Source of the DNA: Pirellulales bacterium
GTDB lineage: Bacteria; Planctomycetota; Planctomycetia; Pirellulales; PALSA-1355
Assembly: GCA_963733035.1 (NCBI GenBank)
Contig: CAVTBU010000005.1
Span: 288,001-352,000, forward strand
Reading direction: 5' to 3'
Length of the DNA stretch: 64,000 nucleotides
The stretch's first letter is position 1; each line of letters starts with the position of its first letter. Of this stretch, positions 30,001 to 33,000 are shown in pieces. Position numbers: made by a program.

Positions 30001-33000
30001 GGGAATACATTCCATCGGTCGCGGGCCAGGATTCATCGCTGCGAGCCAGCGTCGCATCAACGTCACCCTATACATGCCCCCTCGGGCGGCCGATTACAGC
30101 AGCATCCCTTGGAAGGCGAAGTAGGCGATCGTGCCGATGGCGATCGGAATGCCGTACGGAAGCAAGAGCATTGTGCTCTTGCGCTCGGCGGCAATCGTCG
30201 CCAACTGCTCGGGATCGCGAATCGTAACCATCTCGTACCAGATTGTCAGAAACTGGAAGTAATGTTTCGTCCATGCACGGCGGTAAAGGACCATGAGTAG
30301 GGCGATCACGCCACCTACGATGGCCGAGACGCAAAACGCATAAAGCGTATCCCCCATGCCGATCCAGGCACCGACGCCGGCCAGCAATTTGACGTCGCCA
30401 GCCCCCATTCCGCCGATGGCGTAAGCCGGCAGCAAGAGCGCCAGCCCCACGACCATGCCCAACAGGGCCGCACCGAAACCCGCCCATCCGCCGGTGATGG
30501 CGCCCACTACCAGTCCGGTCAGCACGAACGGGAAGGTGAGCCAATTGGGAACCTTGAGCTTATAACCGTCGATGAGGGCGGCCACAATCAAGGTGATGGT
30601 GACGATCCAAACTCGCCAGTGTTCAATGAGGTGTTCGTTGAAGTTGGTTTCAAACATTGCCCAAATCCTTTCGCACTAGCGAGGGGGTAAGTGTCGAGGA
30701 GCTTAGAAACAGCCCGCCGCAATCGTGACCTTTGCCTACCGACGCGTCAGCAAAAATGCTGCTCCAGCGCCCAACAGCGTCAAAAAGTAAGACGCGAGTT
30801 GCACGGCTCCAGCCATCGATTCGACCGGCAGGAAATAGTAGTACATGAGGTTGCTCTCGCGGCGAGGCCCTGCGATGGAAACTGCCAGTCGCCGGAATGG
30901 CTCGCCAAGAAAACGTAGCTTTTGCTTTACCGGAATGCGGTCGCGGCGGGAAAAAAGGTCTCCACGAAAAAACCCCCGGCGTGCAACGGGGAGCACGCCG
31001 AGGGTTGCGAACAATCCTGCAATCCGTTCGGCCGAGTTGTATCGGCCCGCGAATTACTAGCTGGCCGTGGTGCCCATCGAGCCGGCCACGTTGCTGAACG
31101 TGGTTTTGGCCTTCGAGCCCAACGAGGTAATTGCCGTCAAGCAGACGACGATGATCAATGCGAGCATCACCGCGTATTCGACTGCTGTGGGACCATCTTC
31201 CGAAACGAGGAAACGTTGCATCTTCTTGGCAAGGCTCTTCATGGAATCCTCCGCTGCGGCCACTCGCACCCCGCGGGGTAAATATGCGAGCTATTGGCCG
31301 AAAATTGTCAGTGGGGCTGTTGCAACCGCGGTCCCGGCCTTGCGGCCGACACTCGCCTGCGTTGCGGTTACCCTGGCCCCAAATTCGAAACGATCGCCTC
31401 CCCAGACGAGACTTTCATCCGGGTCCACCGCACGAGCGGCTTCACCGGGGTGATTGTTTTGTCACGCACGCCGCGTACAAACGCGAGTGAACGCCACTCA
31501 CATTGACTGACGCGCGCGACAGACAGTCATCCCTTCGGTAGCCAGGCTGCCACGCCGCTTAATGAGGCGGACGTGGTCCACGGCTTTGCGTCCCGGCCTC
31601 GCGACCGGTTTGCCCTTCTCGAGGATGAAGAGGCTGCAGGCCTCCCACGCAAGTGCCTTCGAAATGGCCCGATGTGACGGCGAAATTGGTTTGCCGGGAA
31701 TCCGGCCGCTTCGAAAGGTGCTTACGCTTTTCGATGTCCACCAGGGACATCTCGACGGTCGATGCTTTCGTACCGCCCGTCTACATTGAAAACTAGGTCG
31801 CATCCGCCGCTTGTCAAACTGCGAGTGAAAACTATTCCGGGAATTTTTTTTGCCGCGTTTCAAAGACCGAAATCAGCGGTCGGCCAGCGTAGTCGAACAG
31901 CACTCGACGCTCCAACACCCCGTCGTGGCCATTCCGTCGTAGCTCGCGTTCAGTGGGGCTACCGACAAATTCCACGTACCAGGTGGTTCTAGAACGGCTA
32001 ACCGGCTCGGGTGCCAGCGGATCGATGGCTGATGCTGGCTCCCGTACGTCGACACTATGCTCGCCTTGCGCCAAATAGGCGAGCGGCCAGTAGAGCCACC
32101 ACTCACTGGCCACGATGCGGATCGCGTCCTCGGGTCCACGTTCGGCCAGGATTTTGCCTAAAGCAGCCAACTTCGGCTCGACCTTGGCTGTCCGAAATGC
32201 GCGATGCGAGAGTCCCCCACTCCGCTCGATGAACTCGAAGTATCCAAGGTAAAACATGAGCGGGAACAGCCCTCCGACGAGCAACAATCCCCAGGCCGAC
32301 GCTCGTGCCCAGGGCCGGGCAGGCTCGATCCACCACTCCAGTCCTCGCGAGAGAACGAGGGCCCCCGGCGCAACCAGGCAAATGCCGTAACGTTCGAGGT
32401 GCGGAACGATCGCGCCTGGCCCGGCCACCAGCGCGAATCCCAACAGCATGATCGACCAACCTAGGAGCAAACTAACATCGACAGCGTCTGCGCCGTGCAA
32501 GAGCCGTTGCACCAGTCCCCAGGCCCCAATCACCATGGCAAAGCCCAGAATCCAATTGCTCGCCAGCGGCAGCCAGACAAACGGCGCGAGTGCCTCCTTA
32601 GCGACCTCCACGCCTGAAATATATTCGTATACCGTCGCACCGCTCAGCAAACGCAAATAGTTCTGGCAAAACTCGCCAAATTCGCTGGGGCCATGTAGTC
32701 GAGTCACCAGGGTGGCCAATAACACCCAGGCGATATATACGACAATCGCGCTAATCGTCACGAGCCCGGCCAACGATCCAGGACGCGCGGGCAGGGCCGC
32801 TGTTCGCAGGCGCCAAATCAGTTGGTTCCGGCGGGCGTAAATAATCGGCACGACCAGCAGCGGTGTGGCAAAAATGTTCGTGGGGTGAACGATCAGTGCG
32901 GCCGCGAGTGCAACCATGGCCCCCAGCGGAAGCGGGCCGGCCGACGAGCGATGGCGCAGCCAGATGAGCGGCAGGTAGAGCACCACCACCGTGGCCAACA

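Follow-up and report, generated by a model that had tools for sequence, protein, structure and literature searches.

The window, a stretch of 64,000 nucleotides from a genome of the order Pirellulales, carries a Tad/Cpa pilus cluster whose components all lie on one strand, from 31242 to 21796, in the order flp-cpaA-cpaB-cpaC-tadZ-cpaF-tadB-tadC, and a c-di-GMP-I aptamer lies ahead of flp on the same strand (Table 1). A TPR-repeat protein ends the cluster, and its position suggests a TadD-like role. The ORF that we call TadZ/CpaE-like falls under the cut-offs of TadZ_N (22.0 versus 26.4 bits), CbiA, and AAA_31. Read from the ATG at 31242, the first gene encodes a small pilin of 61 residues that matches Flp_Fap (PF04964) at 37.8 bits and contains ...EDG/PTAVEYA..., a form of the G/XXXXEY motif; a longer ORF, 31057-31269(-), scores 37.4 bits against the cut-off of 32.2. 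A scan of 30600-32000 returned no promoter at its thresholds. A terminator scan of the same interval found none in the leader, only the hairpin behind flp and a shorter version nested inside it. A comparable terminator-like site lies 3' of the first flp at 50 of 103 loci, and such a hairpin could keep the machinery genes below the level of the pilin.

Table 1. Features of the pilus cluster and of the flp leader, in window coordinates
Feature	Position	Strand	Evidence
TPR-repeat protein, cluster end	19953..20912	(-)	profile match
tadC, platform protein	21796-22767	(-)	T2SSF 73.0 bits
tadB, platform protein	22772-23740	(-)	T2SSF 69.3 bits
cpaF/tadA, secretion ATPase	23795..25186	(-)	T2SSE 218.5 bits
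tadZ/cpaE-like ParA/MinD-type ATPase, N-terminal receiver domain	25366..26595	(-)	Response_reg 31.4 bits
cpaC/rcpA, secretin	26687..28459	(-)	Secretin 125.8 bits, T2SS-T3SS_pil_N
cpaB/rcpC (SAF + RcpC domains), true start codon uncertain	28579..29799	(-)	Pfam
cpaA, prepilin peptidase (Peptidase_A24)	30094..30657	(-)	67.7 bits
Terminator-like G+C-rich hairpin and U run, between flp and cpaA	30961..31006	(-)	14 pairs, 10 of them G-C; tail TTTTCGTGGA
flp, Flp/Fap-type prepilin, 61 aa, processing motif G/PTAVEYA	31057..31242	(-)	Flp_Fap 37.8 bits, cut-off 32.2
SD sequence GGAGGA, 4 nt ahead of ATG	31247..31252	(-)	sequence; GGAGG in 63/94 long-leader first flp genes
GCAGGC, candidate P0a 3' strand	31355..31360	(-)	GCCTGC/GCAGGC, 115 nt ahead of start codon
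G-rich leader box GUCUGGGGAGGC; GGAGGC is candidate P0b 3' strand	31396..31408	(-)	alifold, 7 family members: GCCUCU with GGAGGC
c-di-GMP-I (GEMM-I) aptamer	31533..31624	(-)	RF03167 62.5 bits and RF01051 63.3 bits
5' strand of P1 extension (..CAUC, followed by CCUCGA), pairs with GGAUG at ~31528-31532 directly 3' of aptamer	31625..31628	(-)	conserved flanks; 90.6% of cells paired
Conserved 5' flank GGCCUGC-A-GCCUCU: candidate 5' strands of P0a (31636-31642) and P0b (31629-31634)	31629..31642	(-)	94-locus consensus
Promoter-like TTGACA, 16 nt, TAGTTT	31790..31817	(-)	by eye; weak

The aptamer scores 63.3 bits on RF01051 (cut-off 35) at contig C5:319534-319624, which corresponds to window 31534-31624, and the alignment covers model positions 1-87 of 87; cmscan places a c-di-GMP-I-clan aptamer at 31533-31623(-) with an E-value of 2.3e-12. 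The only other RF01051 match in the genome, C5:1142794-1142882(-), also lies above the cut-off with 60.3 bits, and none of 14 control genomes has a match. Both scores reproduce those of a preliminary description of this DNA, which had placed the riboswitches in the leaders of the pilin gene that heads the tad/cpa cluster (g00902) and of an orphan pilin gene (g01616). The positions bear this out: 291 nt separate the aptamer 3' end from the flp ATG, and 107 nt separate the second aptamer from the start of the orphan paralogue. The orphan reaches 24.8 bits on Flp_Fap, under the cut-off; it has the same processing motif as the flp of the window, and the two pilins share ...EDGPTAVEYAVMLAL. They had been taken for the only two Flp-type genes of the genome, but at least four are present, since two further ORFs contain SEDGPTAVEYA (Flp_Fap 28.3 and 24.3 bits), and neither of these has an aptamer.

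In the window copy, the P1 and P2 hairpins are both present 5' of a same-strand gene, and P1 is capped by a GCGA tetraloop. The letters that contact the ligand are canonical, with a G before GGC-AAACC, an A in GCAAAGCC, and a C in UACCGA; the window reads AAG-G-GCAAACC, GC-A-AAGCC, and UA-C-CGAAG at G20, A47, and C92, in the numbering of the Vibrio Vc2 aptamer. Of the 138 aptamers found across the order, 116 have both G20 and A47 by a simple pattern, and three have A20. P1 and its extension are paired in 90.6% of cells over 67 sequences and show several pair types (AU, GU, UA, and GC in the extension helix). The P2 stems of the 138 aptamers, judged by eye rather than counted, vary in sequence and keep their complementarity.

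These 138 aptamers are all of the matches from 151 Pirellulales genomes. The aptamer occurs in 97 of the genomes (78 of the 119 of good quality) and in 66 of 95 genera; the preliminary description, from a smaller sample, had 21 of 25 genomes with the aptamer. A regular expression finds a Flp-motif ORF downstream of 103 aptamers, all of which match Flp_Fap (E <= 1.9e-5), 98 reaching the curated cut-off. With this genome excluded, 101 of 136 aptamers have a same-strand Flp ORF downstream, where the smaller sample had given 19 of 23. At least one aptamer-Flp pair is present in 90 of the 97 aptamer-bearing genomes. The remaining 35 aptamers have no Flp ORF downstream: 13 precede TadG-like genes (Tad/Tad_C with or without VWA), and the other 22 stand before different genes (an RTX-repeat protein, a subtilase, or an uncharacterised secreted family) or before nothing recognisable. 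That pilin control is perhaps the only job of the aptamer, as had been suggested, is not supported. Nor is the pairing one-to-one. Flp_Fap matches, approximately 370 in total, occur in 138 of the 151 genomes, 42 of these Flp-bearing genomes have no aptamer, and two Flp-type genes of the present genome are free of it. Flp is by far the commonest partner of the aptamer in the order; the pairing is common, not exclusive.

Elsewhere in the phylum the picture is different. At 50 of 50 aptamer loci sampled from Planctomycetota outside Pirellulales the Flp motif is absent downstream, and a FliA-like sigma factor lies downstream at 23 of them. Because all 103 motif hits have Pfam support and the motif occurs at none of these 50 loci, the pairing in Pirellulales is not due to chance. 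The canonical contact letters, the strand and leader position, and the predominant linkage to Flp make direct control of the pilin at the RNA level the best reading. We therefore consider the element to be a canonical c-di-GMP-I riboswitch in a long flp 5' leader, which most likely couples pilin output to c-di-GMP without a protein, with a probability of roughly 0.8. The interpretation given in the preliminary description thus holds in part.

The aptamers of the order fall into two subclasses, Flp and non-Flp. Fourteen non-Flp loci share UUGCAACC-N3-25-GGUUGC(N)-AUG, where a hairpin buries the SD sequence and its UUGC is shared with the 3' strand of the P1 extension. Such a hairpin, which hides the SD sequence, predicts an ON switch. 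Some aptamers of this subclass lie ahead of TadG-like pilus proteins, in the same genomes as the Flp subclass. The order appears to have rewired the aptamer class, which is found with a FliA-like flagellar sigma factor elsewhere and with Flp and TadG subunits here.

Leaders of the Flp subclass are long (median 238 nt from aptamer to flp, range 87-419), and only 22 of 103 have terminator-like sites, which are weak and at no conserved position. Ahead of the aptamer, 94 loci have the consensus gGCCUG..gccuc..caUCCUCGA, parts of which are complementary to elements within the leader. The first of the candidate long-range helices, P0a, has 6 bp in the window, and 77 of the 94 long leaders have at least 7 bp. 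The median distance from its 3' strand to the ATG is 120 nt (quartiles 111.5-127); in the window, this strand falls within the internal loop of a leader hairpin at ~31313-31380 (MFE), and the helix would thereby form a pseudoknot. On alignment A1, for sites picked by a search that favours pairing, 87.4% of P0a cells pair, versus 24-50% with slid partners. The end pairs vary (GC 47 and AU 8; CG 50, UG 9, and UA 4), whereas five of the seven core pairs barely do (three are invariant) and are thus uninformative either way. P0a emerged only in anchored, right-aligned views. In pairing with the leaders, RNAduplex did not clearly separate the 5' flank from shuffled versions of it (median z -0.43, 11 of 103 below -2), and RNAalifold gave no consensus structure for the final ~190 nt of 62 leaders, whose alignment is too poor.

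The second candidate helix, P0b, has partners that vary by lineage and remain complementary (CGCUAUGA:UCGUAGCG, UUGCGU:ACGCAA, and UGGAACC:GGUUCCA). By our own count, the partner lies 30-50 nt before the P0a 3' strand in 43 of 76 rows. P0b helices are no longer than those in shuffled leaders (6.26 versus 5.98 bp), and the suggestion of a helix here rests on position and on the varied partner sequences. In relatives, GGAGGC is preceded by (U)CGAGG, which is complementary to CCUCGA, the 5' strand of P1; the box of the window has UCUGGG, a 5/6 match. Of 72 leaders, 22 contain the entire complement of this P1 hexamer, where shuffles would give 11, and 19 of the 22 sit 50-67 nt before the P0a 3' strand. 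A small upstream ORF following either the G-rich box or the P1 3' strand (AAGGGAUG...) was dropped by eye, as it is not conserved and its SD spacing is too short.

How could an aptamer so far from the start codon act? Ligand binding would stabilise P1 and its 4-bp extension. Because a conserved intrinsic terminator is missing from the leader, the step under control is probably either the initiation of translation or the fate of the mRNA, presumably by way of alternative pairings over a long range. The 5' flanking sequence of the aptamer (GGCCUGC-GCCUC-CAUCCUCGA) could pair with the G-rich box and the GCAGGCC motif, which lie ~100-180 nt 3' of the aptamer and ~120-170 nt ahead of the start codon, and the (U)CGAGG box and the P1 3' strand would be rivals for CCUCGA. 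The terminator-like hairpin behind flp would make the response of the pilin stronger than that of the machinery genes. Flp-linked aptamers may, in sum, carry an undescribed long-range platform, in which P0a (GGCCUGC:GCAGGCC) and P0b (GCCUC:GAGGC) clamp the aptamer, a pseudoknot forms, and the G-rich box competes with P1 by a toehold-like strand invasion, within an order that has rewired the class. We put this joint reading forward tentatively, and the odds are against its holding as a whole. If it does hold, the output of pilin would be set by c-di-GMP at a site ~240-290 nt ahead of the start codon.

Provided that the element has any regulatory effect, we somewhat favour ON logic, with more pilin made when c-di-GMP is high. 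In general, c-di-GMP promotes adhesion and usually raises adhesins and pili, and it is this, together with the ON-type hairpin that sequesters the SD sequence in the sister subclass, that inclines us to this sign. Folding of the bound and unbound states at nine short-leader loci predicted inconsistent changes in SD accessibility. The idea that the P1 5' strand is a long-range anti-SD element is unsupported: tethering the free strand lowers SD accessibility in 13 of 91 loci, versus 12 of 91 with a shuffled strand.

The same riboswitch could, in principle, follow the reverse logic, with c-di-GMP shutting flp OFF, for example if Tad pili served early surface contact by swimming cells; c-di-GMP-I riboswitches of both signs exist. 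The folding analyses leave the sign of the Flp subclass unfixed, and the G-rich box would be freed in the bound state, where it could act in either direction. Against it, the sister subclass before TadG-like proteins has an ON-type layout, c-di-GMP usually raises pili and adhesins, and the strong SD sequences of the first flp genes (GGAGG in 63 of 94 with long leaders versus 4 of 28 later tandem copies) fit a gene that is held off until released. We regard OFF control as possible but the less probable sign. More doubtful still is an output at the level of RNA processing or stability instead of translation. Here, the clamping duplexes (P0a, P0b, and extended P1) would form a double-strand nuclease site or a stable excised aptamer, and the ligand may alter mRNA half-life or yield a free c-di-GMP-binding RNA; a free c-di-GMP aptamer RNA is reportedly abundant in Bdellovibrio. 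Such an output would suit helices that enclose the aptamer, with 3' strands 100-180 nt downstream, in a leader that has no conserved terminator and shows no SD effect in folding tests. It would also suit the RNA-library contigs, sequences of relatives from libraries in which DNA can occur, in which the aptamer together with its 5' flank, on the one hand, and flp, on the other, mostly lie on different contigs, although contigs cannot show ends. One contig of 522 nt, however, spans both aptamer and flp, and no cleavage site, end, or enzyme has come to light. Two contigs of relatives, each from a different study, have their ends at 31768 and 31769, close to the promoter-like element. No RNA run of this organism was found, the share of sampled words not exceeding 0.09 in any run; the contigs come from four runs, all of them from relatives, and stretches of the leader that they leave uncovered are uninformative.

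Two further explanations question what the element is rather than how it works. One is that it senses another ligand, as a c-di-GMP-I-GGC (RF03167) or cGAMP-type variant. Indeed, Rfam clan competition ranks RF03167 first for the copy in the window, where it reaches 62.5 bits (gathering score 59) and an E-value below that of RF01051, and three relatives (L065, L079, and L116), all before Flp, have A at the G20 position. RF03167 and the present aptamer are alike in overall sequence and fold. But GGC presumably denotes three contact letters, with G replacing A47, and the defining G is an A in the window copy (model ACGCGAAgCc aligned to ACGCAAAGCC). Moreover, the window copy has G at the G20 position, G20 with A47 is the predominant combination in the order, and the second copy, at 56.4 bits, is below the RF03167 cut-off. 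A different ligand is thus highly improbable, and automatic clan-competed annotation would mislabel this aptamer as RF03167. The other explanation, that aptamer and flp are neighbours by descent alone, the aptamer being a relic or regulating, for example, an unseen small ORF, seems to us the least credible of all. A spacing of 291 nt is long for a riboswitch, and the Flp-bearing genomes that lack the aptamer could be cited in its favor. Yet the linkage persists in 90 genomes of many families while leader sequences diverge, the aptamers keep high covariance scores, and the leader motifs complementary to the 5' flank stand at fixed distances from the start codon.

The riboswitch reading, which we prefer to these alternatives, would bear on a life cycle in which Planctomycetes of this order alternate between swimming and attached cells, a switch whose regulation is little known. 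If the riboswitch acts on the major Tad pilin and on TadG-like minor subunits, it would provide a simple link between second messenger and attachment, and, if this is true, the leader would be a native c-di-GMP-responsive element for reporters in poorly tractable bacteria. For the study of riboswitches, the value lies less in the known pairing than in the platform, a long structured leader without a terminator from which one could learn how an aptamer exerts its effect over a distance. Elsewhere in the phylum, the aptamer usually targets a sigma factor, and this contrast would be a clear example of turnover in the regulon of a single aptamer class.

The pairing itself is not new. Novelty had been claimed for the phylum and for the order-wide association, but the pairing has been on record since the founding paper on GEMM: its supplement lists the gene order aptamer, Flp pilin, prepilin peptidase in Blastopirellula marina (Weinberg et al. 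2007, PMC1950547). The same source gives Rhodopirellula baltica as a further instance, names cpaA among the GEMM-regulated families, and describes GEMM as common in certain orders of Planctomycetes. B. marina, with the same order-level lineage and gene order, is the direct precedent; it is a lone table row there, uncommented, with no order-wide count, platform analysis, or statement on exclusivity. The elements described there for RF01051 and those studied here are alike in their two hairpins, GNRA-type P1 loop, AAA linker, 5'-UTR site, and association with pilus and motility genes. They differ in platform. Terminators overlap P2 in 78 of the 322 GEMM cases (PMC1950547), whereas the leaders studied here (median 238 nt) lack a conserved terminator, and predicted long-range helices embrace the aptamer.

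In the literature open to our search, to which subscription journals did not belong, no paper on c-di-GMP riboswitches with Flp/Tad pili, or with Planctomycetes, was found to treat the pairing. New here are the contrast within the phylum, the two subclasses, and the long, terminator-free Flp leader with its putative conserved long-range helices. A close functional parallel is in Clostridioides difficile, where the type IV pilin gene pilA1, in work of Bordeleau and colleagues from 2015, is reportedly under a class II c-di-GMP riboswitch with a terminator-based ON platform. By that account, the system resembles ours in that a c-di-GMP riboswitch stands immediately ahead of the gene for a major pilin and gives control of pilus supply that needs no protein. 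It differs in that its riboswitch is of class II, acts through a terminator, and serves a type IVa pilus in a Firmicute, whereas the present element is of class I, has no terminator, and precedes a pilin of the Flp type (type IVc).

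The window contains two Rfam matches above threshold, a tRNA gene and one aptamer of the c-di-GMP-I clan. Clan competition labels the latter c-di-GMP-I-GGC (RF03167), a name whose last three letters we take to be the bases at three ligand-contact positions. In the printed alignment, however, the window sequence has A at the distinguishing G of the GGC model (model ACGCGAAgCc versus sequence ACGCAAAGCC), and the remaining two contact positions are G and C. We thus reject that label, and, judged by these three positions, the element is a canonical c-di-GMP-I aptamer, which clan-competed automatic annotation would name wrongly. 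That the element is real and a member of c-di-GMP-I stands. The genome of 6.6 Mb has only one other RF01051 copy. Elsewhere in the order, three Flp-linked aptamers (loci L065, L079 and L116) have A at the G20 contact position (..AAAAGC.., ..GAGC..), the substitution that moves related aptamers in the direction of 3'3'-cGAMP.

Aptamers, leader elements and genes of this genome (window coordinates unless another sequence is named; C5 is the contig of the window, L142 and L143 are fetched loci)
Feature	Position	Strand	Score or remark
c-di-GMP-I-clan aptamer, clan-competed label RF03167	31533-31623	-	62.5 bits (cut-off 59)
Same aptamer, RF01051 searched alone	31534-31624	-	63.3 bits (cut-off 35)
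Second aptamer	C5:1142794-1142882		RF01051 60.3 bits; RF03167 56.4, under its cut-off
Aptamer 5' flank, GGCCUGC-A-GCCUCU	31642-31629	-	
G-rich leader box, GUCUGGGGAGGC	31408-31396	-	
Candidate P0a 3' strand, GCAGGC	31360-31355	-	
flp ORF	31057-31269	-	Flp_Fap 37.4 bits
TadZ/CpaE-like ATPase	25366-26595	-	N-terminal response-regulator receiver domain, 31.4 bits
546-aa multi-pass membrane protein	31832-33472	-	no Pfam match
Possible promoter, TTGACA-16 nt-TAGTTT	31817-31790		spotted by eye; no call by promoter scan
tRNA gene	55356-55428	+	68.7 bits
Additional Flp-type ORF	L142:1396-1647 = G000:C5:~277080-277331	+	Flp_Fap 28.3 bits; ~10.7 kb before window position 1
Additional Flp-type ORF	L143:1249-1659, contig 9	-	Flp_Fap 24.3 bits; 136 aa, long Ser/Gly-rich C-terminal tail

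Translated from the ATG at 31242, 291 nt from the aptamer and with GGAGGA 4 nt 5' of it, flp encodes 61 aa (37.8 bits with Flp_Fap, the Pfam model for Flp pilins). On the same strand it is followed by genes for a prepilin peptidase, CpaB/RcpC, a secretin, a TadZ-like ATPase with receiver domain, the CpaF ATPase, TadB, TadC and a TPR protein; flp and cpaA are separated by a strong hairpin that resembles a terminator and has a U run. The second aptamer is 107 nt upstream of an orphan Flp paralogue of 58 aa that scores below the Flp_Fap cut-off (24.8 bits), yet has the identical EDGPTAVEYAVMLAL core. The preliminary description, which placed the riboswitch in front of Flp pilin genes, is therefore borne out at both copies, but these are not "the two" Flp genes of the genome, as at least two additional Flp-type ORFs have SEDGPTAVEYA and no c-di-GMP-I aptamer. 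The receiver domain on the ATPase suggests a second, phosphorylation-based input to pilus assembly. The gene for the membrane protein, on the strand of the aptamer, stops 208 nt 5' of it, and read-through from this gene into the flp leader is possible.

The pairing extends across the order. Among 151 Pirellulales genomes, this one included, RF01051 is present in 97 (78 of the 119 good-quality genomes, 66 of 95 genera), and all 138 matches were retrieved and oriented. An ORF with the Flp processing motif lies downstream on the same strand in 103 of the 138 loci (101 of 136 without this genome); all 103 match Flp_Fap at E <= 1.9e-5, and 98 are at or over the curated cut-off. A Tad/Tad_C protein with or without a VWA domain (TadG-like) follows in 13 loci and another or unidentified gene in 21; one sequence (L074, 308 nt, with Flp-type flanks) is too short for a call. 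At least one aptamer-Flp pair occurs in 90 of the 97 aptamer-bearing genomes, or 95 if TadG-like genes are counted too. Flp_Fap itself has about 370 matches in 138 of the 151 genomes, and 42 Flp-bearing genomes have no aptamer, among them one from the family of the present genome and all six of family f28. The central reading of the preliminary description is thus sound, in that the main job of this riboswitch class in Pirellulales is with Tad pilus subunits. Because of these counts, however, it is not the sole job, as had been thought conceivable, and the proposed one-to-one pairing does not hold. Flp_Fap has no match in two small-genome lineages (2.8-4.0 Mb), family f15 (9 genomes) and genus g9 (4 genomes); one of their members, G014, retains an aptamer of low score (49.8 bits), and the ORF behind it is unrelated.

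The 21 other loci are heterogeneous. They include an RTX-repeat protein, a subtilase, an unknown secreted-protein family and, at distances above 500 nt, ribosomal or recJ-like genes; several lack a recognisable ORF. Five loci of family f12 (L059, L067, L076, L089 and L101) have a third aptamer flavour with the 3' end CCGGA-C and neither a Tad gene nor a convincing ORF close downstream; L089 and L101 continue with rpmG (L33) and a gene for a recJ-like DHH protein, more than 300 nt distant, and L076 with rplM, at 552 nt. Behind class-T aptamers in L063, L080, L097, L109 and L112 is a Pfam-unmatched, probably secreted protein family with a common N-terminal ...LE(G/K)REVL(S/A)A... motif and FD(F/I)SI(T/H)GT; the N-terminus of the subtilase in L133 resembles it, and L071 has a weak Planc_extracel match. 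Aptamers also occur in pairs 0.8-3 kb apart on one contig (L062 and L122, G008:C70:134859-135781; L008 and L086, G106:C111; L080 and L097, G086:C123). Each is followed by its own gene (flp, TadG-like or the unknown secreted family), and the pairs give the impression that riboswitch-gene units were duplicated locally.

In the rest of the phylum, RF01051 is present in 65 of 150 genomes. One locus from each of 50 of these 65 was compared. Downstream of these aptamers no Flp-type motif occurs, also when the pattern is relaxed; Flp pairing is therefore a trait of Pirellulales within the Planctomycetota sample. By a simple rule for the nearby ORF (long, with a start within 500 nt), 23 of the 50 loci have as their largest one a sigma factor that comprises regions 2, 3 and 4 (L147, L148, L150, L156, L158, L160-L162, L164, L166, L168, L171-L173, L175, L182, L183, L187, L189, L192-L195). 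Their domain make-up is FliA-like, and there may be a phylum-wide riboswitch on the flagellar sigma factor. In other loci this ORF encodes a protein with an N-terminal methylation motif (4), a TadG-like protein (1) or a subtilase (1). Genomes of family f61 (G181, G233, G253, G210, G271 and G287) have 5 to 27 c-di-GMP-I aptamers each, compared with 1-4 in Pirellulales.

The flanks of the 138 Pirellulales aptamers fall into two groups. Flp-linked aptamers have the 5' end ...CAU|CCUCGA and the 3' end CCGAA(A/G)GG(A/G)UG, and their flanks lengthen the aptamer hairpin P1 by about four pairs. In the majority of non-Flp aptamers the 5' end is GCAAAUCGA and the 3' end CCGAAAUUGCAACC. In 14 aptamers of this second type, all non-Flp, UUGCAACC is followed by 3-25 nt, GGUUGC(N) and AUG, a predicted hairpin that buries the Shine-Dalgarno (SD) sequence and adjoins the start codon. 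As the UUGC of its 5' strand also belongs to the extended P1, in the 3' strand, stabilisation of P1 by the ligand is expected to open the SD hairpin, which by its sequence would be a textbook translational ON design.

The Flp leader is organised differently. Its median length is 238 nt (range 87-419, 103 loci), and eight of the nine short leaders (87-126 nt) come from the family of the present genome. The 25 nt 5' of the Flp-type aptamer are conserved (gGCCUG..gccuc..ca). In 77 of 94 long leaders a GCAGGCC motif, at a median of 120 nt upstream of the ATG, can pair with the flank GGCCUGC over at least 7 bp (candidate helix P0a). Aligned over 67 sequences, P0a has 87.4% of its cells paired, versus 24-50% with slid partners, and the end pairs vary (GC 47/AU 8 and CG 50/UG 9/UA 4). 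Because the five inner pairs are near-invariant and the sites were picked by a pairing-biased search, support for conservation of P0a by pairing is moderate. A second candidate helix, P0b, would join flank GCCUC to GAGGC about 40 nt upstream of the GCAGGCC motif; its partners vary in sequence by lineage with complementarity kept, and its length shows no excess over shuffled leaders. Immediately 5' of GAGGC, many leaders have (U)CGAGG, which is complementary to the P1 5' strand, with a full match of this type in 22 of 72 leaders versus 11 expected. In the window, GCAGGC falls in the internal loop of a predicted hairpin (~31313-31380), and P0a pairing would therefore form a pseudoknot.

A canonical aptamer thus sits in the flp leader and is linked order-wide to Tad pilus subunit genes. 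In the mechanism we propose, c-di-GMP would stabilise the extended P1, the G-rich box would compete for the P1 5' strand, and the long-range helices would keep these elements together. The output would be translation or mRNA fate, not intrinsic termination; terminator-like sites occur in 22 of 103 Flp leaders, where they are weak and not fixed in position, whereas in 50 of the 103 loci such a site follows the first flp. Two results speak against a simple anti-SD model: the tethered P1 5' strand lowers SD accessibility in 13 of 91 loci versus 12 of 91 with a shuffled strand, and folding the aptamer closed or open changes SD accessibility inconsistently in the nine short-leader loci. The SD is stronger in first flp genes than in later tandem copies (GGAGG, 63/94 versus 4/28; GAGGAU, 27/94 versus 1/28), which is suggestive only. 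Given the predicted design of the sister, non-Flp subclass and the part that c-di-GMP generally plays in adhesion, we favor ON logic for flp, with a probability of roughly 0.6.

Public RNA runs included none with sequence of this organism (top share of sampled words, 0.09). In metatranscriptomes, contigs from relatives (80-95% alike) extend over flp and over the aptamer together with the flank 5' of it; two from separate studies end at 31768 and 31769, and a single 522-nt contig spans flp and aptamer with a different intervening leader. Since contigs cannot show ends and such libraries may contain DNA, these data and the by-eye promoter are weak hints.

A literature search covering few subscription journals found no paper on the aptamer-Flp pairing, the order-wide pattern or the platform. 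New here are the full order-wide counts, the contrast with other Planctomycetota, the two aptamer subclasses, and a candidate long-range expression platform worth experimental testing. In Clostridioides difficile, a c-di-GMP riboswitch reportedly precedes a type IV pilin gene. Weinberg et al. 2007 (PMC1950547) described GEMM as frequent in some orders of the Firmicutes and 'Plantomycetes', and cpaA is one of the families for which they list regulation in at least two instances. Supplementary file 1 of that paper lists an instance in Blastopirellula marina in the order RNA, Flp, hypothetical, CpaA, and the novelty in the phylum that had been claimed for the pairing therefore falls away. In that entry Flp is directly behind the RNA and CpaA further on, and the window operon has the same order of flp and cpaA.
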